64,000 nt of DNA from Vulcanimicrobiota bacterium (GTDB lineage Bacteria > Vulcanimicrobiota > Vulcanimicrobiia > Vulcanimicrobiales > Vulcanimicrobiaceae), in assembly GCA_963833095.1 (NCBI GenBank), contig CAWHWQ010000003.1, positions 1 to 64,000 of the forward strand, given 5' to 3'. The position numbers and the translations under genes were made by a program. Shown here piece by piece: positions 17,201-35,288 of this stretch. Each line of letters opens with the position of its first letter. Position 1 is the first letter of the stretch. The notes beneath the pieces were generated by a model. That model made no database searches. It was not told the DNA's origin and worked only from the letters and a program-made list of their open reading frames with translations.

Positions 17201-19506
17201 GTAATCTCTATAAGACGCAGGAATGTCTCCAGGCGACGAGTGTCCTAGTCGCCGGCCCGTTCGCAGGAAAACCATCAGGCAGCCCAACCGTTACGGGAAG
17301 TTGCACGTCATTTTTCGATGTACGTGGCAACAGCTTCGACCCACTCGATCGTGGACTGAACAAATACGAGGTGGCGGCGGGAAGCACACCCGAGTCGACC
17401 GCAACCTATGACACGAATGCCGACCTCGGGCTCCTCAGCGAGAAGACGACCGCGACCGGACAAACCGATACGCTCGCTTACGACGCCGACGGCCATCTCG
17501 CAAGCGAAACCTTCACTGACGGAATCACCCCGAATCGGTCATTCGGCTATGACCCCGACGGCCATCAAACGAGTCTGACATCGACGGCCCTGGGAACGCA
17601 GACGCGTACCTATGATGCGAATGCGCGCCTGATCGGAACGACCGACCCCAGCAGTTTGAGCGATCCGGGTTCCGTGACGTATTCCTATTACCCGGACGGC
17701 ATGCGTCAGGCGCTCAGCTTGAGCATCCCAGCCTTGAACTTCTCGCAGAGTACGCTGTTTGCGTACAACTACCGCGCGGACGGAAAACCGTCGTCGCTGG
17801 TGAGTGCGATCGGCTACGGGAACAAGACCTTCGCCTGGACCTATACTGCAGCGGGCCGAGAACTCACGCAGAGTGATCCATTGACCGGAGCCCAGGTCTA
17901 CGGGAACGACATCAGTCTCGTCCCCGAAACCTACACCTACGACAGCTACGGGCGCGTAAACACGCTGCAGCTGCCGCGCTCGCTAAACCAACTCCAGAGC
18001 TTCACCTATGACGCCGAAGGGAGTGCGGTCAATTTCCAGACCGGCGTTACACCCTATCCGTACGTCTACACCGCAAGAAACGAAACGTGGGGGCCAAACG
18101 CCTATGGCCAAGATGCCAACGGTGCACAGTGTACGCAAGGGAGCAGCTGCACGATAGATTCGCGCTCGAACCAACTACTCTCCGATACCGAGTCCTACAC
18201 GCCGCCGGGCGGCTCAATGGTAACGGCGACGCATACCTATTCGTACGACGCTGCAGGGCGCGAAACGAACGATGCCTCGCAGACGTGCAACGGTTCCGGT
18301 GCGACCGCGCGCACGTACGACACCGACAATCACGTCGCGCAAATGACCGTGAGCGGAAGCTATGACCCCGGCCTAACCACCTATAGCTGCGGAAATCTGT
18401 CGTCAGGTCCCTATACAGACTGCGTACTCTTGGGCGGCGGACGGGCATCTCGCAACGTTGACTAATGCCGCTGGGCCCTATACCGCTCATTGGGATGGCG
18501 ACGACCTGCTTTATGTTGCCGGTCAGCCGCTCACCATCTATATCGGGAAGCTCGGCTTCGTCACGCAAAGCCCGTCGGGATCGGGAACAGCGATCACCGG
18601 TGTATATAACCGCGACTGGAGCGGCACCACCATCGACGAGACCTTCTCACTTGCAACGGATGCTACAGAGGTGGCCTTTAGCGCACTGAATATCAATCGG
18701 CCCTACACTGCGTGCACGTCGGGAAATCCAAAGTGCGGAACGGCAAGCTCATTGCCGGCGGCGGGCGGCCCGAGCAGTGCTGGTGGTACCCCGCCGCAAC
18801 TCGCGCTCGACGCGCAGCGTACCGACGGCTACTACGACGGAGCCAACGTGTTCCAAGCGTGCGCGCGTACGACCCGAGCGCGAATCAATGGACCACGCCA
18901 GACGCATACGCCGGCGATGTGCACGACCCCATGTCACAAAAGCCGTACATGTGGAACAACAACAACGCGATGGCATACAGCGATCCTACGGGCTATGCAC
19001 CTCTCTTTCGAGATGCGAGCAGGGAGGGAGACGCGGCAGAGGACCCCAAACAGGTACACACTGAGGACTCCGCACCGCCGCTGATGTTAATGATACATGC
19101 GGCTGCTCGTGCATATTTGGACGGTCCCGTACTGCCCAGCGGCGGCCTAGTTCGCCCGGGTACGCAGACCGTCTCAGAGCTGGCAGAAAACGCCGATAAC
19201 TACTTGGTTAAAAGCGGCGCCTCAACCACGGAGTCGAGTAGCGACGGTCGAGCCGCGCTCCAAGTGGCTTTCGGTAACGGCCAGACGGGGCAAATGATAT
19301 TCTCTGCTGTCGAAGTCGAGATAGAAGTAAACGACAGGAAGGGAAATGAGATTGTGTCCGACTACAGCGAAGTTCGGTGGCAATGGGACCCTGGGAATTA
19401 CGGGCGGAAGTTTGTCGGCGGTTATCCCGAATACCGAATGGTCAACGCAGGGATAAAGACGTGGCTCCCTGCCCCGCTGCAAAGCGACGTGGAACCTAAG
19501 GAGTGA
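14230..19506 (+). CDS. Rhs/YD-repeat polymorphic toxin with Sec signal peptide (frameshifts near 16200-16270, 18420-18460 and 18855)
   Basis: [21 protein letters not shown] signal, PT-repeat linker, DUF6531-like segment (VNVGNGNL...FRRSYN...FGNGW) and many YD repeats. Core terminus [14 protein letters not shown]...[12 protein letters not shown] at about 18870-18993, then a variable C-terminus. Confidence 0.85.
14884..15050 (+). repeat. Pro-Thr repeat linker within the Rhs N-terminus
   Basis: [35 protein letters not shown]... encoded by degenerate ACGCCG repeats. Confidence 0.85.
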
Positions 19507-19507
19507 G

Positions 19508-19963
19508 ATGCCCATGAACGAATTGGTTCGCAGAACAGCCGCTAGCTTAATGGCGGTGATGCTTTTAGCTGCAGCGGGGACCGACAATTGCTCGGAGCAT
19601 TACGCGGGGCTTATTCGTCAATCCGCACGGTTTGCCGACGCCAAAGATTACGCGAAAGCAGCCGTTTTGCGGGATTCGGCCGGCAAGCTCTTTCAAAGAT
19701 GCTTTGCCGCGGGCACGGCTCCGAAGGACGAAATGTTTCCGTTTGATGGAGCGAACGCATTTACGGTAGCTGGTACGCTATGGCACGTTGCCGGTCACGA
19801 CGATCGCGCGAATACAGCCCTAAAGAGTGCAAAGCTTGCTTTGAAAGCAGTGCTGGCGGTCTCGCCCGAGCGATCGCTGAGCGAGCAGGAGCGACTGTAT
19901 CTTGATCGTGTTAGGACGGTGATCAGCCGGGAGAGTGCGGGGCGTTGGGGCGTTTGGAAGTAG
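19508..19963 (+). CDS. Putative cognate immunity protein with signal peptide
   Basis: Starts immediately after the Rhs stop codon. Hydrophobic N-terminus and helical content. Confidence 0.6.
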   Translation: MPMNELVRRTAASLMAVMLLAAAGTDNCSEHYAGLIRQSARFADAKDYAKAAVLRDSAGKLFQRCFAAGTAPKDEMFPFDGANAFTVAGTLWHVAGHDDRANTALKSAKLALKAVLAVSPERSLSEQERLYLDRVRTVISRESAGRWGVWK

Positions 19964-20243
19964 CTGATGCAGCGCCATGGACAGCGCTCGCGGGTGGCAC
20001 GCACCGATTCGGAGTAGTTGCTTTTCATTTCACAACCGTAGATCGGTTGCACAAGGGTGACTCGAAGGGCCTCCCGAGCTTCGCTGTTGCACGGGCCAAC
20101 TGCGGGTGTCCAATTGTGGCGCTCCTATGCTGTGCTTTCCGCGGTTTGCGTACGTAGAACACATAGCCAACAGCATTCTGGCGCGAAGTGTTAGCTAACC
20201 AGGGCAGCAGGCCGTGAAGTGACTCGACGGCGTATAAATGCTC

Positions 20244-20664
20244 GTGCTTTCGGCGTTTGGTAATCGGCACGAACTGACCGAGGTCGAGGAGCGGCTCTCT
20301 CAGGCTCCCGATGATGTGTCGCTGCTTTTTTCGCGTGCCTGTTTACTCGATTTGCTCGGGCGCAATGATGAGGCGAAAGATGCCTACATCGAAGTCATCA
20401 AGCGCGATGGCACGCACATCGGGGCCCTCGGAAACCTGGGGACGCTGCTCTACAACGCGCGCTATCGCAGCGCGGCGCGGCTGACCCATGGTGAAGCGCT
20501 CAAACACCATCCGCGCGATATGCGCACGCTGATCAATCTCGCCAATGCGCTGCTCGAAAACAACGAGCTCGCCTTCGCGCGGGATTTGTACGAGCGCGCG
20601 CTGGAGGTCGATGCCCAATCGTCGCAGGCGCATCAAGGGCTGGGTCACGTGCTCGGACGGCTCG
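20244..20664 (+). pseudogene. Truncated copy A of the 5' end of the TPR/ATP-grasp gene
   Basis: Near-identical protein sequence to the 33875 gene (LLFSRAC.LDLLGRNDEAKDAYIEVIKRDGTHIGALGNLG...HQGL.HVLGRL), then an abrupt switch to unrelated sequence. Confidence 0.85.
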
Positions 20665-20808
20665 AATTTTCACGGGGCGCGCCCAGTGGATTGCCGATGT
20701 AGGCGGATTCACGGTGGGCAGTCAAGGGGCGGGAGCGAGCCGGTTCGGTAATTCGCTAAGATGCTTTGCTATTTGCTAGCCCTCGGGCACAATCAGGTGA
20801 ATTGATGG

Positions 20809-21104
20809 ATGTCTTTACCGGCGGTGGTCGCCCGTAGCATTCTCGATCGTGTGGGTACTGGCAATGCTCTTCATAATTGTGGGGGGGTGCCGGAGTTGGA
20901 TCCCTCGAGTTCGGCCCATTCCTCCTCTTGTTGATTCCGTTGTGGTTATCTCGGCTGCTTCTAGCCCGCACGTCGACCGCGTCCAACACGTTCAATAGAA
21001 CAGCGCTAAAGTCGATAGGTCTTGTGTGTGAGCTAGCGATGCTTGGGGCATTCGGCTATCTTTACACGTTGCTTGTACTGTCATTCTGCCCACATCCGGG
21101 ATAG
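20809..21104 (+). CDS. Small membrane protein, candidate orphan immunity protein (5' part frameshifted)
   Basis: Several hydrophobic stretches, ends CPHPG and lies within the cassette array. Confidence 0.4.
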
Positions 21105-21326
21105 CCGTTAGCGAAGAGGCGGGTGGGTAGAGCTAGTTCGAAGTGATCGTAGCACTGGCCGGAGCCGAAAATAGGTTCTGCCCTCGTGCTGGGGGACTGC
21201 TAAGGCCGTTCGCGGCATATAAAGCGCTTGTGCTTCCGGAATTTGGTAACCCGCACGAGCTGACCGAAATCGAGAATCGGCTCGCGCCGGCCGGAAGAAA
21301 GGGAATGGTAGGTATTAAACTTGTCG
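21088..21326 (+). repeat. ~240 bp direct repeat, copy 1 (contains short TPR-gene 5' fragment B)
   Basis: Almost identical to 32315-32553. Includes TATAAA...GTGCTTCCGGAATTTGGTAACCCGCACGAGCTGACCGAAATCGAG. Confidence 0.9.
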
Positions 21327-21344
21327 CCGCTCGTAGAGTCTTTT

Positions 21345-22606
21345 TGAAGCTGGCCCGCTTTCGCGGAGAGTTTTTGGTTAGACATCACGCGGCTTGACTC
21401 ATCCGCCGCTCGAACTCCATGGGTGAGATGTTGCCGATGGACGTGTGCCGGCGGCGTGGGTTGTAAAAGCCCTCGATGAATTCGAAGACTGCGAGAGCTG
21501 CGTCGCGTTGAGTTCTTGAAGCGATGCTTAACGAGCAACTCGCATTCGAGGATCGCGTTGAAACTTTCGCACATCGCGTTGTCGTAGCAATCGCCAACCG
21601 AACCCATCGAGGGCCGAACGCTCGCTTCGTCGCAACGTTTGCCGAAAGCGATCGAGGTGTATTGCGATCCCTGATCGGAGTGATGGATGACGTTCTTCGG
21701 CTTGTCGATTATGAATGGCCATGTCCAGTGCATCGACGACAAGTTCGGCACGCATGTGCGTCGCCATCGCCCAGCCAACAACGCGGCGACTGAAGACGTC
21801 GAGCACGATGGCGAGGAATAGAAAGCCAGTCAGACGTCGGCACGTAGGTGATGTCCGCGACCCAAAGTTCATCCGGCGCGGTCGCCGTAAACTGGCGGTT
21901 GACTAAATCGGGCGCGGGACGTGCATCTTTATCGCGGATGGTCGTCTTGAAATGCTTTGCGGCGAGTTGCCCCTTGGATATTCCGCTCGCGCATCAACCG
22001 CGCTACGCGTTTATCGCTCGCGAAGATATTCTCATCGCGCAGATCAGCTTGAATGCGCGGGCGACCATAGTTTTCAAACGAATCTCGATGGAGAGCTTCA
22101 ATGCGATCGCCAAGGACGATATCGGCTTGACGCCGTTTCGACGGCTGTCGTTTAAGCCACGCATAGTAGCCGCTGGTCGAGACCTCCAGCACGCGGCATT
22201 GCGTGACGATCGGCCAAATGGCGTGGTGCGCTTTCACGAATTCGAAGACTTTGACGGGAATCGAATCGGTCTCGCGTGCGAACCACGCCGCGGCTTTTGA
22301 CAGGATATCTCGCTCGATTTCAAGCTGCTTGATGCGCTTGCGAATCGCGCGATCTCTTCTTGCATCATCGGTCGTTACACCATCGCTACGACGGCCCGCA
22401 TCAAGATCGGCTTGCTTAACCCAATTCCGAACCGTTTGTCGCGCGAGCTTGAATTCGTCGGCAAGTTCGTCTGCGCCGCGACCCGATCGCGCGAGCTCAA
22501 TGATCTTAAGCCGAAAGTCCGCCGGGTAGGCCCGGGGATGTTTTCTGGCCATGGGTGGACCTTTCTCCGCTAAGCGGAAAGTATCCACGGAACCGGGCCA
22601 GCTTCA
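21345..22606 (-). mobile_element. IS3-family insertion sequence
   Basis: Terminal IRs TGAAGCTGGCCC / GGGCCAGCTTCA. OrfA MARKHPRAYPADF and OrfB motifs YGRPRI, HHSDQGSQY and DNAMCESFN. Confidence 0.93.
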
Positions 22607-23000
22607 GTGCGCCGACACTGTGACAGCTATTGGCCTATTTATCCTTTCCCTGGTCACCGACGGTGCCACAGCCATGCGGAATCCAGAAGCCGAAGCGGAA
22701 GAGCCCGTGTACGCTAGCGCTCCGCTTGGGAGAAGAGGCGCCCCGCTCAACACAGCGCCACGTACCAATTCCCCGGGCGCGGTCTTGGGGCGCGCCTATT
22801 CCGGGCACGCGTTTGACCAAATGCAAAGCCGCGGGGTCACGCCAACCGTCGTTGAAGACACAATAAAAACTGGTGTCAAGGCAGACTCAAGAGACGGAAC
22901 AACGACGTATACGTCCAGCGCAAATGGCGTACAAGTCGTCCTGAACAAGGAGGGTAAGGTAGTCACGGTGATAACAGTCGAGAAAACCAAGCCCCGCTAG
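22607..23000 (+). pseudogene. Orphan toxin C-terminus, DUF4258-like putative RNase, truncated by IS
   Basis: YSGHAFDQMQSRGVTPTVVEDTIKTG...VQVVLNKEGKVVTVI pattern; begins at the IS end. Confidence 0.65.
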
Positions 23001-23012
23001 CGAGGATGTTGC

Positions 23013-23456
23013 GTGGCCACTGAACTGAAGATAACAGCGCTCCCCGATTTCTCATTTGCGCTTTTAGTCAAGCAAAGGGCGCACCCGACCTCAAGCGATG
23101 AGGACGATCGAGAACTGCTCTCGTGCGAAGTGAAATTGGCTTGTGGGACGTTCCGAGGAGCGGCGGCGGGTTTCATCCGCATTCGAGAGCTCCGCGAGCT
23201 AAACGAAGCAATCCCACGAGGACTAGCGGGCGCCGAAGAGTTCTGCTTTAAGCCGATTGATGGGCTGTTTGAGCTTGAGCTTTTGACTCGGTCAACAGGC
23301 ACCGTTGCCGGGTTTGTCACAGTTATTCGCGAATTTCCAAGATGCCTACTAAAATGCCATTTTGAAGGCGCTGATCGGAACGCTCTGGAAGCGTCCGGTG
23401 CTGCGCTCCGCGATCTCCTGGACGCTTTTTCAGGCGACGCACAACGGGAACTATAG
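23013..23456 (+). CDS. WapI-like immunity protein
   Basis: Follows the toxin fragment. RAHPTSSDEDDRELLSCEVKLACGTFRG resembles the WapI-family N-terminus. Confidence 0.5.
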   Translation: MATELKITALPDFSFALLVKQRAHPTSSDEDDRELLSCEVKLACGTFRGAAAGFIRIRELRELNEAIPRGLAGAEEFCFKPIDGLFELELLTRSTGTVAGFVTVIREFPRCLLKCHFEGADRNALEASGAALRDLLDAFSGDAQREL

Positions 23457-23564
23457 GTCACGCGTTGCTTGTGTGAAGCGGGCAGTTATGGCCAAGGTCA
23501 TCAGTAACTGGAGTGCTGCATTGTGCCCTCTCACTTTGCAATTGCGGCGGAGCATGATAATCAC

Positions 23565-23841
23565 ACGCGCACGGTTGCGCCTGCAACTCCCGCGTGCCCT
23601 CAACGTTGTCCGGGCCTTCTCTTCCGATGCTGAGGGCAACCAGGCCGGTGTCGTGGATGCCGGCAACGGAGCCGGACCATACTACAATAATTCAATGGCG
23701 TACAGCGACCCTTCTGGCTTCGAGACCATTGAACTCTTCGACAATGAGTTTGGTCGTGGTGTGGGGCACGCAGCTATTTTAATAACGAGTGGACACGGCG
23801 ATAGTGGAAAACTCTATTGCTGGTGTGGCTCTAAAGGGTGA
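23565..23841 (+). pseudogene. Internally deleted Rhs remnant with truncated C-terminus
   Basis: LQLPRALNVVRAFSSDAEG matches [19 protein letters not shown] of the main Rhs and is joined almost directly to NNSMAYSDPSG. Confidence 0.7.
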
Positions 23842-24296
23842 TTACAATGCTGTCCTTCATTCTCTTCGCCCTTTCGGCGGAGCCGCGCGCGGCCGGTGCT
23901 CTTATTCCGCCGGGCCTCTATCAGGGTGGTTCACCCTGGTTCGTCGTCGCTTTCGAGTCCAGGTCATCGCGAACGCGGCTCATGTTCTGGTTCGAGGAGA
24001 AAGTAAACGGGCCGGTCGTCTCAGAAAGCTACGATCTTATTGCTCTGCCATCGTCGCACCGATACCGGATAGCGCATGGTGGCGCGTCGTGTGGCACAGC
24101 CGAAATCAGGCCCGCCAACGGAATTCTGACGATTAGGTACGGCGCGACTTTCCTCAAGGTGGCGCCCACGGATAGGACGGTCGTCAACACGGCCATTCAC
24201 CAGGTTGCGGATAATCAGCGTTACGCCCGCCTTCGACCAAATGGCAGCGCTACCGCCTGGTATTACGGCTCGGCCCTTCCAAAATGCACGAGATAG
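23838..24296 (+). CDS. Secreted hypothetical protein, candidate immunity protein
   Basis: Signal-peptide-like N-terminus; overlaps the stop codon of the Rhs remnant. Confidence 0.5.
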   Translation: MITMLSFILFALSAEPRAAGALIPPGLYQGGSPWFVVAFESRSSRTRLMFWFEEKVNGPVVSESYDLIALPSSHRYRIAHGGASCGTAEIRPANGILTIRYGATFLKVAPTDRTVVNTAIHQVADNQRYARLRPNGSATAWYYGSALPKCTR

Positions 24297-24499
24297 TTCC
24301 AGTCGAAGGGAGGCAGTTGGGGAGGCGCGCGGCTTATAGCGTTTCGTGCTCCCTCTCAAGCAGCACCCGGGTGATTCGGGCGGCGTTGGGAAGCGCGGGA
24401 CACCCAGGGGGCCCGCCCCTGGTGACCTCGACCGTTTCACTCGCCCGCGGAATGACCCGATAACAAAACGCTTGTGGAACTTGAGGAGACGAACCAAGC

Positions 24500-25203
24500 G
24501 TGATGCCCTCAGCATTTGACTTTCGTCGCGGCTTGACGTGCTCTTCAAACGCGAAGGCATGGCCATTGGCTACGATCGGTTCTTGAGAATCTATCGTGCA
24601 AATGGTTTGCAAGTTCGGCCGCGGCGGAACCGGAAAGCGAACTATGTTCGCGGCAACGTTGTGCCGGGGCGGTCAGTAGACCGAACAACGCTGGTCGATC
24701 GACTTCATGCACGACCGCCTGACAAACGGGCGCAAAATTCGAACCCTGAACATCGTAGACGACTTCACCCGCGAATGCCTGGCCTTACGTATCGCCTACT
24801 CGTTTGGGAGCGCCGACGTTATCCGAGAATTCGAGGATATCGCCTTCAAGCGCGGCTTTCCTGAAACCGTACGCTTCGACAACGGCTCGGAATTCACGAG
24901 CCTTGCGATGCTTGGTTGGAGCGCAGAGTGTAGGATTCAGACGCATTTCATTGCTCCGGGCAAGTCGACGCAAAACGCGAACATCGAGTCACTTAACGGA
25001 AAAATCCGAGACGAGCTGCTTAACATGCACTCGTTCACCACGATCTTCGAGGCTCGCCGATCCGCCGAGGCATGGCGCGCCGACTACAACGACGTTCGAC
25101 CGCACTCAGCACTCGATCTGCAGACGCCAAGGGAGTTCGCCGATCGATTCAAAACCAACCACTCCTCACAATTATCCGCGGCCTGAAATTGCCTCACATG
25201 TCA
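24500..25203 (+). mobile_element. Partial IS3-family (IS407-group-like) element, right end only
   Basis: OrfB motifs DFMHD, VDDFTRECLA, RFDNGSEF, IESLNGKIRDELLN and RPHSAL. Right end ...GCCTCACATGTCA resembles the ends of the 28547 element. The left boundary is approximate. Confidence 0.85.
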
Positions 25204-25730
25204 CCGGTTACACCGGCGTAGTCCAAGTAAATGGGAATACCGTTACAATAACCGTTTATGTAAAATTCACCGGAGATACCACAAGCGCGGAGGGGAAAAA
25301 GGCGGAACAGAACTTCGTAAACGGTCTCCTAGCCTACAGTGGCCAGCATGGCGCATTCACGGTCACGATGAACGTCGTCGAAGACACGAAAGACATAAAG
25401 AACAGCAGTCTCATTAACACGATCAATATTCAGGATGGCGATGCGCCATCGAGAGACAATAACGCGGCAAATCTTTGGACAATAGGTACAAGCAAGAGCT
25501 ACAATGAATGGGGCGACATGCATGAGGCAGGCCACGTGATAGGGCTTCCGGATGCATACGGTCAGAAGTTTTCGGATGAATGGAGCGGGAATATTATGAA
25601 GGAGCCTTACGGCAAGGTAGATTCTCGGGATTTTGTCTATATGCAACGCGCGGTAGGCAAGTCGGGATCGGCGACGCTCACTGCTGGAACGGCGTGCATG
25701 TCTTGCATGGTGGACCCGGGCTCGCCGTGA
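25204..25730 (+). pseudogene. Orphan Rhs C-terminus with zinc metalloprotease motif
   Basis: Starts at a (T)GY resembling the end of DPxGY, directly at the IS end. Contains HEAGHVIGLPD followed by NIM. Confidence 0.7.
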
Positions 25731-26227
25731 TGAAGCACCTAGCGCTCGCGGTACTCCTGGCGATTGCTTGCACCGAGCAGGCTTGTGCCGATCTGCCTAC
25801 ACCGACAAAGATACCGGGAGACAAGGCCGGCCCCTTATCAAAGGCTCCGGTTGTGCGGCTTGCGGCATTTCCTAGCTATCTTTCGCCTGAAAAGCGAGCG
25901 TTCCAACAGGGCGGCGACTTCGACACAAAAAGCTACTGCTCTGCGACAATTGACATCGGCGCTGATCCAGGTGTTCAGGCGTCGATCGTAATTCTTGGGG
26001 TCGATAACTACCTGAACACGTATGAGACGTTTCCACAGGGACGCTCCGTTACGCTGACCGGCAATGAGAAGCCAGGCGTTGATAACGTTGTCAGGATTTC
26101 TTTTGTGATCGAACTGCGCCAGAATCAGACCGCATTTCTCATCAATCTCATTGGTGACTCCATCAAGGCTCATAAGAATTTCTTTGTTAATATGACGCCA
26201 GTGGCGTGTGGTGCTTCGGTAAACTAG
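25730..26227 (+). CDS. Secreted protein, candidate immunity to the metalloprotease toxin
   Basis: MKHLALAVLLAIAC signal; start overlaps the toxin stop codon. Confidence 0.55.
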   Translation: MKHLALAVLLAIACTEQACADLPTPTKIPGDKAGPLSKAPVVRLAAFPSYLSPEKRAFQQGGDFDTKSYCSATIDIGADPGVQASIVILGVDNYLNTYETFPQGRSVTLTGNEKPGVDNVVRISFVIELRQNQTAFLINLIGDSIKAHKNFFVNMTPVACGASVN

Positions 26228-26312
26228 AAGCCAAGAAGCGAACGGGTGACCGATTCCTACTTCTTTTTGAAGCGGAGAACCAGGTCGCGGGCGAAGCGCA
26301 GCGCGTCGGCTT

Positions 26313-27149
26313 TGGGGCGGCAGTCTCGTCAACGAGCACTTTTCGTTGCCGGCGCAACTGCCAAGTGGCGAAGTCGCGGCGTTTACCGCGCTCACGCCGG
26401 ATCACATCTACAATCAGTGCTCCGTCGGCGTTTGTGCCGCACTGAGCCAAAAACCCATATGGGGCGGTCCAAGCGATGCGGGTACCAATCCGCCTGGTCT
26501 CCCCGCCGATGCGCGCAGAACGGACGGCTACCTTGTCGACGACAATGTATTTCAAGGCGCTCGAGTCTACGATCCCAACGCCAATCAGTGGACCACGCCC
26601 GACGCCTACGCAGGCGACGTTCACGACCCCATGTCGCAAAAGCCATATATGTGGAACAACAACAACGCGATGGCATACAGCGACCCAAGCGGGTACGAGG
26701 GCAATTGCCCAGGCTGTCAAGGACTAGGGGCCCAGCCCGAGGAGAAGATGCCGGCGAACGCAGAGCACTACGTTAAGTTAGAAGCGACCACCGGTTTTGG
26801 AGCGGTGTCCCTTACATTGACATCCTCCGGTCATGCCTACATCTCGGGCGGCGCTGGTGCGCCAGAGCCTTCGGTGTCTGTAATGGCTGGCACTATCGTA
26901 CGCAACGCGGGCAAAACCGCGGATGACGTCGTTAGTGGCTGGAGCGGGGGCGCCAGCTTCGGCGCAGGAGTGGGATTCGAAGCGTGGGGGAACGCGAGCG
27001 GGTCCGCCGTCGGCGTTGGCGTTACGACACCATGGGCTGGAGGCACGGCTACCTACGGCGTGCAAATCGCAAAGCCACAATCGAAGCCAGGCACACAGGT
27101 TACTAAAACGACCGCTACTAAGAAGGAGGACGCGGCTTCGCCGAAGTGA
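26313..27149 (+). pseudogene. Orphan Rhs module: core 3' end plus Gly-rich C-terminal toxin
   Basis: [48 protein letters not shown], followed by a Gly/Ser-rich beta-type domain. Confidence 0.85.
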
Positions 27150-27418
27150 TGGAGAGCAAAATGGTGATTGGTTTTCTTGCACTGATAATCTTGGGGTTTA
27201 TCGGCGTTAAAAGTGCACGTGGCATTCGCATTGAGGCGCGGGTGCGATATGTGGTGGTTTTCGTGATGCTTTGCGTGGCTGGTGCTACTGCTGCGTATTT
27301 TCATCGCGGTTTGATCGCCGATTGTGCAGGCGTATTCGCAATCGCGCTTGCTGCTGGTTTGGCGGTGATGCACCGTGCCTACCGCGCTGGAAGCGAGACG
27401 CCCGGGGTAAAAACGTGA
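27146..27418 (+). CDS. Small three-helix membrane protein, candidate immunity
   Basis: Overlaps the toxin stop codon; three hydrophobic segments. Confidence 0.6.
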   Translation: MMESKMVIGFLALIILGFIGVKSARGIRIEARVRYVVVFVMLCVAGATAAYFHRGLIADCAGVFAIALAAGLAVMHRAYRAGSETPGVKT

Positions 27419-27666
27419 ACTGGCCTGTCATCACGAACTGGCCCATGGCGATTTTCTTTGCAGTCGTCTGCTTTGGAATATCCGCATTCCTGGGGGGTGC
27501 TGCGCTAGTTGCGATAAAGGGGACGCCTAACTGGAAGCCCGCTCAACTGCTCGCTTGGTACGGAGCTGGCGAGTCGCGCCTGCGTCTGGTTCGCACGATC
27601 GGTGCGGCGCTTGGAGCGTTCCTCATTGGGGCGGTCGTACTTGCGCTTGCACTAGCTTCCAGGTAG
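27415..27666 (+). CDS. Small two-helix membrane protein, candidate immunity
   Basis: GTG overlaps the previous stop codon; two hydrophobic segments. Confidence 0.5.
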   Translation: MNWPVITNWPMAIFFAVVCFGISAFLGGAALVAIKGTPNWKPAQLLAWYGAGESRLRLVRTIGAALGAFLIGAVVLALALASR

Positions 27667-27779
27667 CGATCTTTCGTTCCGATCAAGCATGTGTTCATCG
27701 CGTGACGCTGGGAGCGACAAAAGCCTTGGTTGGAGTAGAAATAGCCGGAGATTTCGTTCAATACGTAAAATGGCGGCGC

Positions 27780-28549
27780 ATGCGCATGTTCATTTCTTTC
27801 GCAGCACTTATCATCGGATTGAGCAGCCCGGCCAGCGCCCAGATGGGACGGCGCCCCCGGCAGCAAGGCCTACCCCTCTCGACGCGGCCCGCGATCGTGT
27901 CGAGGCGATGCTCTCTACGGCGCACGCCGAGGCAAGTTGGTTTAGCGCTGCCCTCCTGGCGCAAGCTTCTGTCGGACAGGTTGAAGCGATTCTGGCGCGG
28001 TTCAGAGGTGCGCTCGGCAACTACGAAAGTTTGGAGGGGGCGAAAGGCGACTACATCGCCCATTTCGCGAACGGTACCGACGAAATATTGATTCATCTCG
28101 ATCCGGACAATAAAATCGATACCGTGACCTTCAAGCTCCCGAAACTTGTCGAGCGCGCGGGCGTGAGCGCTATGCGCCAGCTTTCCTTTCTGAAAGGATC
28201 TTGGGCTTGTACACTGAGGGGCGGCAGTTCCAACGGAACCGTTCAAGAAGTGAGATATTCGTTTTCATCTGATGGGTTGTGGATGACCGAGCTTTCACAG
28301 AGCGCGGGAGCGAAAAAGAAGGATTGGGCAACGCAAATGTGGGGATACGACGTTGGCGCTAGCAGGCTGGTCGCGTATCAATTTGCGGCTGACGGTGTGC
28401 ATACGAAAAACGTTGATGGTTGGATCGATGGTGTCTTTAGGAGCGAACGCGATGATAACGGGGCGATAGTTCGGCTGACACCGACCGGTCCGCAGTCAAT
28501 GCAGTGGTCCATTGAGAGTGCCGATCAATCACGTTTGGTCCGGGAGTGA
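27780..28549 (+). CDS. Secreted hypothetical protein (frameshift near 27850), C-terminus cut by IS
   Basis: MRMFISFAALIIGLSSPASAQ signal in one frame and the body in another. LSFLKGSWAC resembles DUF1579-type domains. The stop codon comes from the IS end. Confidence 0.45.
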
Positions 28550-29744
28550 CGCGTAAGGCAATTTCAGGCCGCGGATAATTGTGAGGGATGGTTGATTTTG
28601 AATCGATCGGCGAACTCCCTGGGCGTCTGCAGATCGAGGGCTGAGTGCGGTCGGACGTCGTTGTAGTCGGCGCGCCAGGCTTCGGCAGACCGACGGGCTT
28701 CGAAGATCGTGGTAAACGAATGCATATTGAGGAACTCGTCGCGGGTCTTTCCGTTAAATGATTCGACGTGGGCGTTTTGCGTCGGCTTTCCCGGATGCGA
28801 TGAAGTGCAGCTCGAATTGCCGCTCTGCGCCCCAGCGCAGCATAGCGTGGCTCGTTAACTCTGAGCCGTTATCAAAGCTGAGATTTTCGGTAGTCCGCGT
28901 TCGAAGGCAATGTCCTCGAACACGCTGATCACGCGCCGACTGCTGAAACCCCGAGTCGACGTCGACGGCCAAGCATTCGCGGGTAAAATCGTCGTCGATG
29001 TTCAAGCACGCGCACCTTGCGGCCATTGGCCAGCGGTCGTGCATGAAGTCGAGCGACCAACGCTCGTTGGGCGCGTGACCGGGGCGACGCGTTGCCGCGA
29101 ACGTAGTTGCACCTTGCGTTTTGCCGAGGCCGCACTTGCAGGCCATTCCCGGTAAATCCGCGAAATCGGTAGTATCCGATAGCAAGCCCTCGCGTATGAA
29201 GAGGATCAAAGGCGTCGCCACCCCCAACGCGGCCGCTGCGCTGCGAGATCCTGTAGCCGTGCTTTGACCGGCTGTCATCGTCCTTGGGTTTGCGAGGTAG
29301 TACAGATTGCTGCGCGTGTAGCCAACAGGGCGCATGCTCGCAACGCTGGGCAACTCCTCGATCTTGCAAGGCTCTCACCGCGTCTTGCCGCTGCGAGGGC
29401 CCCAGCCGTTTTTTTAAACCAGCTCTTTCATCGCATCGATCTCAAGCGTCAGCTTGGCGATGATGCGTTGCATCTGCGCGCTCTCGTCTTCGAGCTGCTT
29501 GAGGCGGACCAGATCGCTGGTCTCAAGGCCGCCATACTGGTCCCGCCAGAGCCGGATCGTGTTGGCGTGGATGCCGTGCTTGCGCCCGAGCTCGCTCACC
29601 GGCGTTCCGGCGTCGACCTCCTTGCAAGAATCGAGACGATCTGCGCCTCGGTAAAGCGACTTTTCGCAACCGCGTGTCTCCTTGCTGGGCTCTACGCCCG
29701 GAAACTCACAACTCCCGCAGGCCCGGATTAGGCCTTACGCGTCA
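28547..29744 (-). mobile_element. IS3-family (IS407-group-like) insertion sequence, frameshifted
   Basis: Perfect terminal IRs TGACGCGTAAGGC / GCCTTACGCGTCA. OrfA HGIHANTIRLWRDQYGGLE and OrfB PNERWSLDFMHD. Confidence 0.92.
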
Positions 29745-29755
29745 GAACCGAAGCA

Positions 29756-30842
29756 GCTCATTAGGATGGTGACGACCTGCTTTACGTATCGGGTCATCCG
29801 CTCTATCCGCTCACGATTTATTTCGAAAAGCTTGGATTTGTTACCGTAGGTTCAGGAATGTCCTCCATTACTGGTGTGTACGATCGCGACTGGGGCGGCA
29901 ATCTCGTAAACGAGCACTTTTCGTTGCCGGCGCGATTGCCAAATGGCGAAGTGGCGGCGTTTACCGCGCTCACGCCGGATCACGTTTACAACCAGTGCTC
30001 AGTGGGCGTTTGTGCCGCACTCAGGGCAAAACCCGTAAGCGGTGGTCCAAGCGATGCGGGTACCAATCCGCCTGGTCTCCCCGCCGATGCGCGCAGAACC
30101 GACGGCTATCTCGTCGACGGCAATGTATTTCAGGGGGCGCGCGTTTACGATCCCAATGCAAATCAGCGGACCACGCCCGACGATTACGGCGGCGACGTAG
30201 ACGCGCCCATGTCACAGAAGCCGTACGCATGGAACAATAACAACGGCATGGCCTACAGCGACCCAAGTGGCTACGACGGCGTCCTATTTCGGGATGCGAG
30301 CAATGAGGGAATGAATGCTGAGGCTCCTTCGCAAGTCGACAGCGAACAGTCGTGCCCCCCAGGCGGCACAGTATGTCACGGCCTACTGGTCATAGCGGAC
30401 GTTCAGGCGAGTGCCGCCATAGCGAACCAAATCCACCGCGTGAATTTGCAGCTTGGGTTCTGGACTGGATTCTTACAAGCTGGCATGTTCTTCCTCGGCG
30501 GCTGGGAGGGTGCGGCTGCTGAAGAAATCGGTGCCGCTCTGACTATAAGAAGAGTCACACTCTATCGTGTCTTTGGTGGCGAAGCAAAGGGCATGGGCAG
30601 ATATTGGACTACAGTAAACCCTGGGTCGGTGTCGGACTACAGAACGGCGGGCTGGACTGTTTCCCGGGAATAGTGGGCAGTTCGTAATAGAAGGTACCTT
30701 GAACAAGCTCGACGGTGTGCAATTCCAAACAGCGGCGTCAGGTCCGGGAGGGATAGGGGGCGGCCTTCCCGAGGTATATGTCCCTAACCCCGCATCCCAA
30801 ATTACAATAACTCGAGTCTCGGGAGCGAATCCTCCATTCTGA
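29756..30842 (+). pseudogene. Orphan Rhs module with putative ADP-ribosyltransferase-like C-terminus (frameshift near 30650)
   Basis: H*DGDDLLY (TGG to TAG) and a core ending AYSDPSG. The CT reads LYRVFGGEA...YWTT..., continuing in another frame as FVIEG...GGGLPEVYVPNP...NPPF. Confidence 0.8.
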
Positions 30843-30871
30843 GTGGAGGTTCGTTGAATGAATAGTAGGTC

Positions 30872-31237
30872 GTGAGAACACCGGATTTCTTCATCTCGGC
30901 TGCGGCCGAGGTCAACGGCGATTTGGCGGTCCCGCGAGCTTGTTGGGAGAGAAGCCGGCTTAGGGACGAGACGAGGGATGACTATATGCTCGTCGACGTT
31001 GCGCCCCCTGTCGTTGGGCAAAGATTCGGGCTCGGGGGACGTGACATAACTGACCTAGTCATCTCAGCGCGTTACCGAGGGTCGACGCTGTTTCCGGTGA
31101 GCGAATGGCCTTGCCATGTCTACATTGCCCGGATAAGGGATCCGCTTATCGCGACGACGCTGACGTTCACGGACGGCCAGGTCGAGTTAATCGGCTGGGG
31201 AATGATCTTTCGTAGCGTTGCGGATGCGAACGCATAG
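30872..31237 (+). CDS. Putative immunity protein
   Basis: Small cytoplasmic ORF directly after the toxin C-terminus. Confidence 0.55.
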   Translation: MRTPDFFISAAAEVNGDLAVPRACWERSRLRDETRDDYMLVDVAPPVVGQRFGLGGRDITDLVISARYRGSTLFPVSEWPCHVYIARIRDPLIATTLTFTDGQVELIGWGMIFRSVADANA

Positions 31238-31256
31238 AGGAAGGGATATTCACTCG

Positions 31257-31619
31257 ATGTCACGTGAGTCTTCATCTGGAGGATCCGTCGAGTTCACGGT
31301 ATCTGGACTGACTTTCCTGGGTGAGCAGGACGGGGAGTCAGAGAGGATTCTTAAAGGGCGACTGGCACATCTTTTTGAGACCGACAATTCTGTTGCCACT
31401 GCCTACTTGGCGCGCGCGGTCCTTGGAAATGGGCAGGCCTCCGTGGTTCTCGCATTGCGTGCCGCGCCTCAGCAGGTCGACCTTCTTCTGAAAGAGATCC
31501 ATGAGCAATTCGCGCTCGTGTTTGCTCGATCTGAACATCTGGACATTTTGTTCCTTTCAGAACTACAAGAGACTAAACTTGCGCGTGTTTGCGAGCCTTT
31601 TTTTCGCGGTAACAAGTAG
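31257..31619 (+). CDS. SseB C-terminal-like protein, candidate immunity
   Basis: FLGEQDGESERILK..L..LF...VATAYLAR...LDILFL pattern recalled for SseB_C-like proteins. Confidence 0.55.
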   Translation: MSRESSSGGSVEFTVSGLTFLGEQDGESERILKGRLAHLFETDNSVATAYLARAVLGNGQASVVLALRAAPQQVDLLLKEIHEQFALVFARSEHLDILFLSELQETKLARVCEPFFRGNK

Positions 31620-31703
31620 CCAGTATGGTCGCGTAAACGGAGCAAGATGCCGGGGATCGCGTTCGGCTAGGGATAGCGCTGCTGGGTGTGCGTATAAATG
31701 CTC

Positions 31704-32075
31704 GTGCTTCCAGCGTTTGCTAATCCGCATGAGCTGACCGAGATTGGGGAGCGGCTAGCTCAGGCTCCTGACGACGTCTCGCTGCTTTTTTCGCGTGTCT
31801 GTATCGTTGATTTGCTTGGGCGCAATGACGAGGCAAAAGGTGCCTACATCGAGGTCATCAAGCGCGATTGCGCTCACATCGGTGCCCTGGGGAACCTGGG
31901 GACGTTGCTCTATAACGCAGGTTATCGAAGCGCGGCGCGGCTGACCTACGGCGAAGCACTCAAACACCATCCGCGCGATCTGCGCACGCTGATCAATCTT
32001 GGCAACGCGCTGCTTGAAAATAACGATCTCGCTGACGCACGCGGCTCTACGAGCGCGCGCTTGAGATCGACCCGC
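31704..32075 (+). pseudogene. Truncated copy C of the 5' end of the TPR/ATP-grasp gene
   Basis: LPAFANPHELTEIGERLAQAPDDVSLLFSR...LINLGNALLENN is a diverged copy of the 33875 gene. Confidence 0.85.
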
Positions 32076-32314
32076 TCGATCGAGGATTGGCCAAGTACGA
32101 CAAGTCACGCTCAATGTGACATCCATCGCGAAACGAAGGATATCGCCGAAAGTCACAAGGCAGACGGAACGGATGACGGTAGAGGGCACGATCTCGGAAC
32201 TACGGTCACGTGAGATGGAGATACCCCACATGTGCATGTCGCAGCATCATGCGCCAATTGCATTAGCGCTGGCGATGTTTGCACTACACGATACGGGCGG
32301 ACCTGGATGTTACG

Positions 32315-32553
32315 GCCCACATCCGGGATAGCCGTTAGCGAAGAGGCGGGTGGGTAGAGCTAGTTCGAAGTGATCGTAGCACTGGCCGGGGGCCGAAAAT
32401 AGGTTCTGCCCTCGTGCTGGGGGACTGCTAAGGCCGTTCGCGGCATATAAGCGCTTGTGCTTCCGGAATTTGGTAACCCGCACAAGCTGACCGAAATCGA
32501 GAATCGGCTCGCGCCGGCCGGAAGAAAGGGAATGGTAGGTATTAAACTTGTCG
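32315..32553 (+). repeat. ~240 bp direct repeat, copy 2 (contains short TPR-gene 5' fragment D)
   Basis: Almost identical to 21088-21326; abuts the IS at 32554. Confidence 0.9.
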
Positions 32554-33750
32554 TGACCTGAGGTGGCGTTTTACGCAGCTGATAACTGTGAGAGTTGGTT
32601 GATTTTGAACTGCTCTGCGAACTCCCTTGGCGTTCGATAGCCGAGGGCTGAGTGCGGCCGAACGTCGTTGTAGTCTCGTTGCCAATCTGCGGCCTTCCGC
32701 CGCGCTTCGAAGATCGTCATGAATCGATGCATATTGAACAGCTCGTCGCGGATTTTCCCGTTAAGCGACTCGATGTTCGCATTTTGCGTTGGCTTGCCAG
32801 GCGCGATGAAGTGCAGCTTGATGTCGCGCTCCGCTCCCCAGCGCAGCATCGCGTGGCTCGTGAACTCGGATCCGTTATCGAACCGAATCGTTTCTGGAAA
32901 ACCCCGCTCGAACGCAACCTCCTCGAGCTTACGGATGACGTCGTGGCTGCCGAACGAATAGCCGATCTCCAACGCAAGGCATTCCCGCGTGAAATCGTCG
33001 ACGATATTCATCGAACGGATGTTCCGGTAGTTTCCAATTCGGTCATGCATGAAATCGATCGACCAGCGTTCGTTCGGCCGCGTGACCGGCGCGATGCTAT
33101 TGCCGCGAACGAAGTTCACCTTGCGCTTGCGCCGAGGCCGCACTTGCAGGCCAAGATCGCGGTAAATGCGACGAAAGCGGTGTTCGCCAACGTCAATGCC
33201 TTGACGGCGGAGCATGATAATCAAGCGCCGCCATCCCCAACGAGGTCGCTCGTGCGCAAGATCGTTGATCGGTGTGGCGATCGCGGCTCTCGTCTTTCGG
33301 CTTTCGCGTGTAGTACAGCGTTCGTCGGCATTGCCCAACGAGTGCGCAGGCACGCACTTTCGAAACGCCATGCTCTTCCAACGCCCTCACGGCTTCTTTC
33401 CGCTGCGAGGGCCCCATCCGTTTTTTGAAATCAGGTCTCGCACGGCGTCGACTTCGAGCGTGAGTCGAGCGATGATCCGATCTTTCTTCGCGCTCTCTTC
33501 TTCGAGCTGCTTGAGTCGCGTGAGATCGCTGGTTTCCATGCCGGCGTACCGATCGCGCCAAAGCCGGATGGTATTTGCATGAATGCCGTTCTGTCGTGCA
33601 AGCTCGGCGACGGGAATCGCCCGCATCAAGCTCTTTGAGGACGGCTACGATTTGCGCCTCGGTGAAGCGACTTTTCTTCACGTGAATCTCCTTGGGCCAA
33701 AGGCCCGGGATTCACAGTTTCAACTTGAGCGACTTTGCCACCTCAGGTCA
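32554..33750 (-). mobile_element. IS3-family (IS407-group-like) insertion sequence
   Basis: Perfect IRs TGACCTGAGGTGGC / GCCACCTCAGGTCA. OrfA MKKSRFTEAQIVAVLKE and OrfB DDE motifs. A-run at the orfA/orfB junction near 33421. Confidence 0.95.
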
Positions 33751-33874
33751 AGAGCGCCACGATCGGAGGATATTAGCAGCCGGGCCTGCTGCATCGCTGA
33801 CACACCGCTCCGTTTCCACGCCTGTGTACCGCGTTTAGTCGGGGGAGTTCTGCGTCGGCGGCGTATAGAGCGGT

Positions 33875-35288
33875 ATGCTTCCGGCGTTCGGTAATCCACA
33901 CGAGCTGACCGAGATCGAGCAGCGGCTCGCTCTGACTCCTGATGAAGTTTCGCTGCTGTTTTCGCGTGCCTGCATACTCGATTTGCTCGGGCGCAATGAT
34001 GAGGCGAAAGATGCCTACATCGAGGTCATCAAGCGCGACGGCACGCACATCGGGGCCCTCGGAAACCTGGGAACGCTCCTCTATAACGCGGGCTATCGCA
34101 GTGCGGCACGGCTGACCTACAGCGAAGCGCTCAAACATCATCCGCGCGATCTGCGCACGCTGATCAATCTCGCCAATGCGCTGCTCGAAAACAATGAGCT
34201 CGCCTTCTCGCGGGATTTGTACGAGCGCGCGCTCGAGGTGGATCCGCAATCTTCGCCGGCCCATCAGGGGCTCAGCCACGTTCTCGGCCGGCTTGGCGAG
34301 CAGACGCTCGCAGACGAGCACCGTCGCGCCGGCTTCGAAGCGATGCCCGTCGTCATCAGTGCTTTTCGTGGTGAAGGGTCTACCGGTCTCACTGTTGCTC
34401 CTCGCCTCGGCCTTTCGTGGAAACGTTCCGGTAGACGCTCCGCTCGACGACCATACTTTCCTGACCATCAAATTGTTCACCGACTACTACGAAGCCGATC
34501 TCCCGCTGCCGCCACACGACGTGATTTTCAACGGCATCGGCGATGCGGATCTGTGCCGTTCGTCGCTCGAGGCCGCGCAGCAGTTGCTCGATGCAAACGA
34601 CGCGCACGCGATCAACGATCCGGCGAGTGTCTTGGGAACCGGCCGCGTCGCGATGGCGCAGCGCTTGACGGGCATCGAGGGATTGATCGTGCCGCACATC
34701 GAGGAAATCGACCGACAGGAACTTGATCGCGTTCAGCGCTTTCCAGTGTTGGTTCGGCCACCGGGTTATCACACCGGGGAATTCTTCGAGATGGCGCGCG
34801 ATCGCGATGAACTTGCGCGCGTGGCGGCGACGCTTCCCGGTGAACGCCTCCTTGCGATCGAGCTGCTCGACGCGCGCGGTGGCGACGGGCTCTATCGCAA
34901 GTACCGCCTGCTCTCGATCGGCGGAACCTTGTATCCCGTGCATCTGGCGCGCTCGTCGCAGTGGAAGGTGCATTACTTCTCCGCAGACCAGGTGCGCACG
35001 CCCGAAGCCATCGCGGAAGAAGAAGCGTTTCTCACCGATCCGCGTACGGCGATCGGCGAACGCGCGATGAACGCCATCGAGACGGCGGCGCAGCGAATCG
35101 GCCTGGAGTACTTTGGGATTGATTTCGCGCTCGACCCGCAGGGGAGCGCGCTCTTCTTCGAGGCCAACGCGACAATGCGCGCGGTGGTGCCGGGACCCGA
35201 CGATCTGTCGATCGCCCGCCGCCGTGCGGCTGTCGCGGCCAATGCGGGCTTGCGTGATCTGGTGTTGCGCGCGGCGCGCGCAGACTAA
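33875..35288 (+). CDS. TPR-repeat protein with C-terminal ATP-grasp-like domain (frameshift near 34378)
   Basis: N-terminal TPR helices; C-terminal INDP, FPVLVRP, YRKYR, YFGIDFA and FFEAN motifs. Confidence 0.75.

Follow-up and report, generated by a model that had tools for sequence, protein, structure and literature searches.

Truncated starts of a downstream host gene punctuate an Rhs toxin array in Vulcanimicrobiota

The window analyzed here, a stretch of 64,000 nucleotides from a Vulcanimicrobiota genome (G000), holds an array of Rhs toxin cassettes in which the start of a downstream host gene recurs several times. This raises the question of how pieces of a conserved gene came to lie between toxin cassettes. 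The left part of the island carries a GspD/PilQ-like secretin gene (11670..14048, minus strand; Pfam Secretin, E 1e-43), which adjoins Rhs in relatives and is missing at the empty site, the aldehyde dehydrogenase-TPR gap of G003, G005, G008, G013 and G015. It is followed on the plus strand, like all array genes named below unless stated otherwise, by a full-length Rhs/YD-repeat gene that is split into three pieces in the assembly (14218..19506, with the present tip, CT1, at about 19006-19506). Its profile matches include DUF6531 as well as RHS_repeat and TIGR01643, the latter two above cut-off, and TIGR03696 below it (E 3e-4); the core ends in a DPxG-like motif, and the protein N-terminus, judged by eye, has a signal-peptide-like stretch. 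A large YD-repeat protein with a conserved core-end motif identifies this as an Rhs locus. Directly behind the tip lies an open reading frame of no family (19508..19963), by its position the putative immunity gene of CT1. At the right end stands the full host gene (33855..35288), with a TATA-like box, a TPR N-terminus, an ATP-grasp-like C-terminus and one frame break near 34380. It matches TPR families and, weakly for the C-terminus, ATP-grasp/RimK; an Atlas search with its C-terminal half returned only unnamed or RimK/ATP-grasp look-alikes. Its open frames in relatives measure 456-604 aa.

The cassettes between these genes are fragmentary. A remnant of a cassette termed x (20663..21104), recognized by similarity to G014:C7, consists of a probable CT tail and a membrane immunity-like gene, the latter sharing 50% identity over 56 aa with the gene that follows the tip of the complete Rhs there. 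Headless CT2 with its WapI-like gene (22607..23456, the latter at 23013-23456) weakly resembles DUF4258 and colicin E5, all of its profile matches being under cut-off (PF14076, E 2e-4; PF12106, E 0.02; PF24716, E 1e-3). A shredded Rhs remnant (tblastx to Rhs, E 4e-6) is followed by a short CT3 and an immunity-like gene, I3 (23581..24296, the gene at 23838-24296), a 27% homolog of which immediately precedes the TPR gene in G011. Headless CT4 has a HEXXH zincin-like motif with weak M6/M7 protease matches and a partner gene, I4 (25191..26227, partner at 25727-26227); the pair recurs in G007 behind an Rhs core end (73%/66%). An Rhs core 3' remnant (TIGR03696, E 1e-5; 86% to the remnant at 29891) precedes a Gly-rich CT5 and two small membrane genes (26313..27666). 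In the open reading frame list and profile searches, 27780..28549 is a probably secreted protein in two frames with no family. Next come an Rhs core remnant (29754-30289), CT6, an immunity-like gene (30872-31237) and an SseB_C-domain gene (31257-31619), and finally a second cassette x remnant (32151..32331) with the CT middle and the last bases of the immunity-like gene, matching the full-Rhs tip of G014:C7 at 56% over 43 aa. The window thus has Rhs core remnants at 23581, 26313, 29754 and 32066. Unrelated tips and small partner genes behind cores of variable length are the rule, the 48 upstream regions falling into 40 classes; among 18 queries from the window, only CT4/I4 and I3 matched relatives' loci, and cassette x did so by tblastx. 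As the candidate families gave only weak matches (DUF4258/colicin E5 with the WapI-like gene; HEXXH protease), the tips are putative toxins and their partners putative immunity proteins.

In a self-BLAST of the window, the start of the gene at 33875 turned up in four further copies on the same strand, as the earlier note had described, with E values that exclude chance by far; no further copy was found elsewhere in the same genome. Stub A (20224-20662) retains the TATA-like box, the start codon and about 140 codons without indels (87.9% over 439 nt, 0 gaps, E 1e-157), stub B (21212-21285) 19 codons (82.4% over 74 nt, E 1e-12), and stub C (31690-32075) about 122 codons (83.1% over 372 nt). Stub D (32440-32512; 81.1% over 74 nt, E 2e-10) is a duplicate of B: both lie in a block (21088-21326 and 32315-32553) that is 98.3% identical over 240 nt, and both end at the same break base. 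The window therefore holds three alleles and three cut points, and the idea that each copy is cut at a different point has to be given up. The differences are mostly synonymous, as had been proposed, with dS 0.33, dN 0.057 and dN/dS 0.17 for the gene and A, dS 0.62, dN 0.076 and dN/dS 0.12 for the gene and C, and dS 0.54 and dN 0.083 for A and C, which argues that A and C diverged from the gene as working alleles. Upstream of the start codon, homology reaches only about 20 bp, to the TATA-like box 5-6 nt before the start. A sigma-70 scan of the window gave 5 sites against 5.8 expected, none at any stub, so that of the promoter said to be copied along, the box stands and a sigma-70 site does not. 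The copies had also been said each to follow an immunity-like gene. This holds for A, behind the small gene of the active tip, and for B, behind the cassette x membrane gene; C follows the SseB_C-domain gene, and D merely the last 17 or so nucleotides of the gene upstream of B. Stub C runs directly into an Rhs remnant of about 35 bp (tblastx, 10/16 residues to the window's Rhs) across a shared word of about 9 bp. Whole units are present at stubs A and C only, 29754..31619 with stub C being the sole full orphan unit, and four further CT/immunity-like pairs (22607 to 27666) have no stub behind them.

To place these stubs in context, we compared 18 genomes of the genus, whose members are uncultured; 15 of the genomes have a close match to the TPR gene. 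Stubs occur in 8 of the 10 genomes with Rhs before the gene versus none of the 5 with an empty site, the genomes being kin and the counts hence not independent. This genus-wide pattern indicates that the stubs are not an assembly artefact. G014, possibly a mixed bin, has two such loci. The Rhs-CT-immunity-TPR arrangement occurs singly in G011 and repeatedly in G002, G009 and G014, and in these congeners it is the basic unit, in line with the earlier note. Sorted by junction, the 33 stubs whose end could be defined give 25 classes, with ends ranging from 44 to 634 nt of about 1410, and the median dN/dS is 0.15 over 28 of 29 stub rows (those with dS>0.05); these counts include some doubtful rows, namely a doubtful stub (L033_136), the 5' half of a hybrid gene (G009_53700), and G007:C2 and L034_689, which reach contig ends and may be whole genes. 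G001:C4 and G007:C2 were dropped as ectopic loci because both stop at a contig break. The TATA-like box and start are retained in most stubs. Taken together, the substitution pattern suggests, as had been supposed, that the stubs were captured as working alleles rather than being decayed duplicates. They cluster, with rough support, with genes of their own species group, and the donors would seem to be close kin. Candidate stubs of other neighboring genes behind 11 other Rhs-region stretches were rejected, the repeats being an IS66-like transposase (G013:C7) and a tRNA-end repeat (G042:C11), labels assigned by eye.

We consider it fairly probable that the stubs are the ragged ends of DNA captured from kin, which later became second homology arms for swaps. 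Two repeats take turns along the array, one being the Rhs core end and the other the start of the neighboring TPR/ATP-grasp gene. Donor Rhs-CT-immunity-TPR DNA would pair by homology in the Rhs core, and its far end, cut at some point within the TPR gene's first half, would join the resident Rhs or tip without long homology; the old tip and its immunity gene would shift downstream, leaving a stub-Rhs junction. Each interval from core to stub would then be a slot with two arms, in which donor units replace residents by double crossover, with unequal exchange copying junctions and moving cassettes; the intact gene, as right arm of the last slot, would become mosaic. For this second step the comparison of sequences in relatives is the basis, and the mechanism is what we infer from it. 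Finally, as the window shows, IS3-type elements and deletions strip heads and stubs.

The proposal that the downstream gene acts as a second homology arm is borne out by the sequences. Beyond B and D, four junction classes recur, each behind two or three unrelated upstream cassettes, and one of them occurs twice in G014:C18. Identity climbs toward the junction inside stubs (G002_50463 versus G014a_34522, from 72-90% to 96-100%). The intact genes of G002 and G014 are 78-93% identical for 1200 nt and then 99.5%, with pepck and the downstream genes at 97.8%. The cassette at the tip of G002 reappears in G014:C18 as orphan 3, its stub allele and junction unchanged; cassette order differs between the two genomes, and at G014:C7 the tip belongs to the cassette x family. 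Tips attached in one genome are thus orphans in another, the mark of Rhs displacement. A two-arm exchange, however, replaces a slot; it neither adds one nor cuts the gene, so that stacking needs an illegitimate join or unequal exchange, and the earlier note's two-arm capture would account for replacement and not for building. The 25 classes among 33 stubs point to repeated one-sided joins, homologous on one side and variable without long homology on the other, probably anchored in Rhs, the side of the anchor being less sure. In G009 the gene consists of two alleles overlapping over about 236 nt at 87.3%, which looks like a non-duplicative join and fits an anchor on either side. Short microhomology is a feature of the illegitimate join in homology-facilitated illegitimate recombination; we found the shared word of about 9 bp at C only, and 2-3 bp or an unclear match at other junctions. 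The latter are too old, or lack a donor sequence to compare, for microhomology calls. A bolder extension, to us doubtful, is an integrase-free two-arm cassette system under selection, in which the host gene start would provide the predicted promoter and attachment arm of a toxin/immunity library; every stub would bring along the entire promoter of its donor, from which the displaced immunity gene behind it would be transcribed, and would make the slot swappable.

The polarity could also be the mirror image, which we regard as unlikely: the donor would anchor in the TPR gene and its left end join inside the 5' part of the resident gene, the stubs being displaced former resident starts, and new immunity genes would be inserted beside the intact gene with the active toxin unchanged. 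The same anatomy and equally low dN/dS are predicted, and clustering with the own species group and the G009 hybrid are both compatible. The cassette preceding the intact gene varies between close relatives. The mosaic intact genes, those of G002 and G014 as well as the two G017 copies, also match best toward the 3' end, although double crossover into the last slot already explains this. Stub-bearing Rhs loci without a nearby 3' part of the gene, at a second locus at 2.47 Mb in the single-contig genome G006 and at G014:C24, speak against this polarity and indicate that the gene is unnecessary as a second arm for arrival. Further points against it are the front of the array, where short-read contigs differ, the leftmost stub, which is clean of indels in 5 of 7 arrays (in G002 it is the most decayed), and the junction cut at nt 341, whose position close to the right end is shared by G002, G009 and G014. 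The relation of stub decay to rank is weak and not significant (Spearman 0.35, p 0.12, 21 stubs), and with a G009 hybrid that fits either anchor, growth from the Rhs side is no more than the likelier polarity. Rhs-side and TPR-side polarities may operate together.

Capture from kin would be unnecessary for the first junctions if these arose within the chromosome, by tandem duplication of the stretch from core through CT and immunity gene to the TPR start, or by excised circles that re-enter at a repeat of the core, the route of Jackson et al. 2009 (PMC2935791), foreign alleles overwriting slots later by double crossover. Such an origin spares a rare one-sided event on foreign DNA and agrees with the near-identical B/D copy within one genome; junction reuse and the altered cassette order of G002 versus G014 look like repeat-mediated shuffling. 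We nevertheless rate it as quite improbable: the G009 overlap, at 87%, is not a fresh duplicate, no fresh whole-unit tandem duplicate was seen in self and cross comparisons of the arrays, and a circle between two cores carries a junction and cannot create the first one.

Four IS3-type pieces lie in the array: an element with inverted ends (21345..22606, minus strand; HTH_21/HTH_Tnp_1; unlike flanks), a remnant (24538..25203, plus strand; rve, rve_3), a decayed element (28547..29744, minus strand; rve; 79.5% to an element in G006) and a further element (32554..33751, minus strand), of which a 93% copy on contig C2 of the same genome has a 4-bp target duplication. The two with intact ends, the first and the last, lack target duplications in the window, and they follow stubs B and D within 33-60 bp. 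Construction of the array by such elements or by a site-specific recombinase is nonetheless very unlikely, since most junctions in G002, G009 and G014 pass from stub to Rhs without an IS, the cut points are scattered, no common att-like core was seen at the junctions, and no phage integrase gene (PF00589) was matched in the window, the nearest being at C3:115111. With scattered cuts (44-634 nt) and no linked integrase, the locus is not an integron or integrative element. Rather than building the array, IS3-type elements without target duplications removed much of it in the window, a point the earlier note had overlooked, and CT2 probably lost its head to an IS rather than to a capture join.

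The assembly was checked with Logan contigs from four short-read runs of one study, which may include the source sample. A short-read contig has 2 gaps against the Rhs gene over 17001-18962, so that the breaks in Rhs are probably assembly errors. In contigs X1, X3 and X4 (three of the four runs), the Rhs core at 18962 is joined to CT2 at 22605 via 91 letters absent from the window, CT2 thus being the tip of a full Rhs in coexisting variants; among the pieces listed, none connects Rhs with CT1 or the IS with CT2. Bins 30575-32425 have a depth of 0-1.4 in all four runs, and the reads therefore neither confirm nor refute the C/D block. Joints with a short side of 19-30 letters (20615-29745, 20641-29876 and 17222-32073) were set aside, together with a loose end at 20662 continuing like the intact gene, as possibly stemming from other organisms. 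Although G000 is a metagenome bin (81% complete) in which frame breaks are numerous, and although the array front varies among coexisting variants, a chimera of several strains' loci is extremely improbable, because mismatch-free pieces (18954-20348 and 20534-21345) span the two flanks of A and continue through B, the same design recurs in single-contig G002 and G006, in 390-contig G007 and in metagenome contigs L033 and L034, and identical junctions appear in separately assembled genomes.

Natural transformation is a plausible, putative route of DNA entry: of 17 congeners, 16 have ComEC and 15 have ComEA, and in G000 (81% complete) DprA was found, whereas neither ComEC nor ComEA was. The pilus cluster, 18.9 kb from the array, does not in itself speak for a link. 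Truncated TPR genes that recur in such bins should be read as biology and not as mis-assembly. Nearly every capture is tagged by a piece of a conserved gene that would show the donor allele, the end of the donor DNA and later junction reuse. Genome sequences by themselves would then suffice to count which way arrays grow, how wide the range of donors is and what proportion of events is illegitimate or homologous, in a phylum that has received little study and where no T6SS was found. If stubs are landing sites for toxin swaps, they would expose how orphan arrays grow.

Among known systems, gnd beside O-antigen clusters is a conserved flank that turns mosaic by hitchhiking as the adjoining variable locus is swapped. 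The identity dip surrounding the island recalls this, although gnd undergoes allelic replacement only, without stacked truncated copies. A search of mostly open-access main texts found no paper on 5' stubs of flanking genes in toxin arrays and none on Rhs in Vulcanimicrobiota. Orphan CT/immunity cassettes behind a full toxin gene are shared with Neisseria mafB-CT cassettes (PMC4287609) and bee-gut Rhs arrays (PMC8125069), the accessible texts of which describe no host-gene stubs between cassettes. In Pseudomonas aeruginosa T6SS effector swapping (PMC11751169), the main breakpoint likewise lies in the upstream gene, with looser sites in a downstream housekeeping gene (argH), but the portions consulted describe single-slot replacement and no stacked stubs. 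How arrays grow is still hypothetical in the accessible literature, with a circular intermediate (PMC2935791) or, 'perhaps', one-sided illegitimate joining (PMC5361080). The latter, the homology-facilitated illegitimate recombination model for Vibrio cholerae T6SS effector-immunity arrays (Kirchberger et al. 2017, PMC5361080), seems close to our best explanation, with an upstream anchor, an illegitimate far end, the old immunity gene pushed back, and two-sided replacement as well. As far as its accessible text goes, it rests on gene order and trees and describes no downstream-gene stubs; Hcp (PF05638) was found in none of the 18 genus genomes, so the Rhs here is probably not T6SS-borne. Rhs C-terminal displacement arrays, in which a full Rhs precedes core remnants that vary in length and carry unrelated tips, are the nearest relatives in anatomy; as in the accessible account of Jackson et al. 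2009 (PMC2935791), what is the tip of one strain stands as an orphan elsewhere, and exchange is limited to close cores. The stub array is Rhs C-terminal displacement with a new element: that account works with the core as its sole repeat and with a circular intermediate, whereas the stub array alternates the cores with a second repeat, the start of the flanking host gene, which would mark the donor end and act as a crossover arm.

Our analysis indicates that the array is real and that it represents a genus-wide Rhs displacement array. It lies in a window that opens contig C3 of the source bin (2.8 Mb in 8 contigs, 81% complete), the ordinary genes of which have numerous frame breaks. The order of the region is an aldehyde dehydrogenase gene (−), a secretin gene (−), an Rhs gene (+), the array, the TPR/ATP-grasp gene (+; 33855..35288, hereafter TPR gene), two small genes and sdhB/A. 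The small genes (35285-36018) are paralogs on opposite strands, 40% identical and without a known family, and they are kept 3' of the TPR gene throughout the genus. The nearest records of the TPR gene come from Candidatus Eremiobacteraeota, Vulcanimicrobiota and Ca. Aquilonibacter sp., which by NCBI placement belongs to Vulcanimicrobiaceae; two carry other labels. A genome-wide self comparison of the source genome also revealed further clusters of diverged direct repeats (C4 12600-17300 and C1 887300-889800).

The four truncated copies of the TPR gene start described in the earlier note were recovered by self-BLAST as stubs A (20224-20662; 87.9% identity to the gene over 439 nt), B (21212-21285), C (31690-32075; 83.1% over 372 nt) and D (32440-32512), with B and D each at about 82% over 74 nt. 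No further copy was found in the rest of the source genome. Because B and D are a single block duplicated at 98.3% and ending at the identical base, there are three alleles rather than four, and the claim that each copy is cut at a different point holds for A, C and the B/D block, but not for B versus D. The earlier note also took the promoter to have been copied: the copies do share a TATA-like box 5-6 nt before the start, but their common sequence begins at this box and extends 5' of the start codon by only ~20 bp. Such a box (33855-33877 in the window) lies 5-6 nt before the GTG or ATG start in most of 18 intact TPR genes, and looks like a leaderless promoter. The copies differ mostly at synonymous sites, as had been noticed, with dN/dS values of 0.17 (gene/A), 0.12 (gene/C) and 0.15 (A/C) at dS 0.33-0.62; for scale, the dS of pepck between the source genome and its congener G009 is 0.48. 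A dead duplicate is expected to drift toward a dN/dS of 1. The low ratios argue that the differences predate truncation and accumulated in working genes.

Read from the left, the array starts with Rhs (14218..19506), its present tip CT1, a partner gene and A, followed by a remnant of cassette x, B and an IS3 element. Then come a headless toxin-tip candidate CT2 with a WapI-like gene, a shredded core-CT3-partner unit, an IS3 remnant, and a headless HEXXH CT4 with its partner. These are followed by core-CT5 with two membrane genes, an IS3 remnant, and core-CT6-partner-SseB_C gene-C. After C come ~35 bp of Rhs and another remnant of cassette x with D, then an IS3 element and finally the TPR gene. 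Position and weak family matches make the toxin and immunity roles of these genes putative. The piece 3' of A matches, at 50%, the immunity-like gene of a cassette attached to a full Rhs on contig C7 of the congener G014, and the piece 3' of C matches the tip of that same cassette at 56%; B and D are therefore two copies of one unit that were differently deleted. C passes straight into Rhs sequence, a ~9-bp word being common to both. Neither of the two IS elements whose ends are intact has a target duplication, unlike the copy on contig C2, and this points to IS-linked deletion.

Mis-assembly of the array is countered by mismatch-free short-read pieces (18954-20348, 19110-20280, 20534-21345, 20842-21345), by recurrence of the design in single-contig genomes, one 390-contig assembly and metagenome contigs, and by identical junctions, where a stub ends and the next sequence begins, in separately made assemblies.

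The proposed Rhs-TPR linkage extends to related genomes. A close match to the TPR gene occurs in 15 of 18 genomes of the genus. In five of these (G003, G005, G008, G013, G015) the gene lies 0.1-1.1 kb from the aldehyde dehydrogenase gene and there are no stubs, whereas Rhs sequence precedes it in ten, eight of which have stubs (G000, G001, G002, G006, G007, G009, G010, G014; the G001 assignment spans a contig break). Stubs are absent from the other two, G011 and G017. On G014:C18, six stubs precede the gene and an Rhs core remnant follows five of them. Over 29 rows, dN/dS has a median of 0.15 (taken from the 28 whose dS exceeds 0.05). A tree built from 48 5' pieces groups the stubs, with rough support, with the genes of the species group they come from. 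Behind some stubs lie the Rhs promoter region and either a second Rhs start or a complete Rhs gene (G014:C7, L097; G001:C4, L109; G007:C1, L103); entire Rhs genes are therefore stacked too. The G014 bin contains an aldehyde dehydrogenase-secretin-Rhs-TPR locus twice, on C18 and on C7, in versions from different species groups, possibly reflecting a mixed bin or transfer. On contig C11 of G042, from outside the family, two full Rhs genes lie 23 kb apart (L221-L223), each with a tRNA-end-like repeat behind it, which suggests tandem integrative islands.

The idea that the downstream gene serves as a second homology arm is supported by reused junctions, identity steps and patchwork intact genes. 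The 33 stubs with a defined end fall into 25 junction classes. Apart from B/D, four classes have several members, each behind 2-3 unrelated upstream cassettes, and one of them occurs twice within G014:C18. In three of the four, identity climbs toward the junction (from 72-90% to 96-100% for G002_50463 versus G014a_34522; the two others are weaker), whereas in the fourth (G009_48714 versus G014a_25983) stub identity remains at 72-92%, with the close match confined to sequence past the junction. Intact genes are mosaic between G002 and G014 (78-93%, then 99.5%) and between the two copies of G017 (83-88%, then 94-100%); between G009 and G014 the gene is 89% identical versus 98.5-99.9% for the flanking genes.

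Two-arm exchange replaces the slot between core and stub but has no means of cutting the gene; illegitimate joins are therefore required to explain the numerous cut points. Such joins would truncate the incoming TPR gene start at varied points, with the incoming DNA anchored on the Rhs side. The G009 gene exemplifies an illegitimate join: its two alleles share an overlap of ~236 nt with 87.3% identity, and the 5' allele is identical to L032. In this hybrid (G009:C14, L091) the two alleles are out of frame, and the TPR gene may be dispensable. Three lines favour the anchor in Rhs. Stubs occur at two Rhs loci without any 3' part of the gene (the second locus of G006, and G014:C24); the leftmost stub has no indel in 5 of 7 arrays; and contigs from 3 of 4 short-read runs of one study join Rhs core 18962 to CT2 at 22605 via 91 letters absent from the window (the version from run X1 has one mismatch on each side). 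Since these letters are foreign to the window, deletion of the window's form cannot yield this variant, and CT2 is an active tip in a coexisting variant. Against the Rhs anchor, the trend of decay by rank is not significant (p = 0.12) and is broken by G002, cassette order is unlike between G002 and G014, and among the read pieces listed, none bridges Rhs to CT1, or IS to CT2. As to entry, ComEC was found in 16 of 17 congeners and ComEA in 15, neither was found in the 81% complete source bin, DprA is present there, and pilus genes begin 18.9 kb from the array. Natural transformation is a plausible route, and transduction a possible alternative.

The secretin gene (GspD/PilQ-like; 11670-14048, −) accompanies the signal-peptide-bearing Rhs (14218-19506, +). 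Its C-terminal part was found in 12 of 17 congeners, almost the same genome set as Rhs, and it adjoins Rhs in G042, from another family. No Hcp was found in the genus. The secretin may be a dedicated export route for Rhs.

In the sections consulted, Jackson et al. (2009, PMC2935791) account for Rhs arrays through circles excised between cores. For V. cholerae, Kirchberger et al. (2017, PMC5361080) propose an upstream anchor with an illegitimate end beside ordinary replacement, and PMC11751169 reports looser breakpoints within the housekeeping gene that lies downstream. Unlike the present array, the systems covered in the consulted sections of these three papers and of PMC8125069, PMC8189183 and PMC4287609 are not described as having stacked 5' stubs of a flanking gene, and our literature search for such stubs in arrays of this kind found no paper. 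The locus is an Rhs displacement array with an added second repeat, which is host-derived and likely both logs donor ends and acts as a crossover arm.
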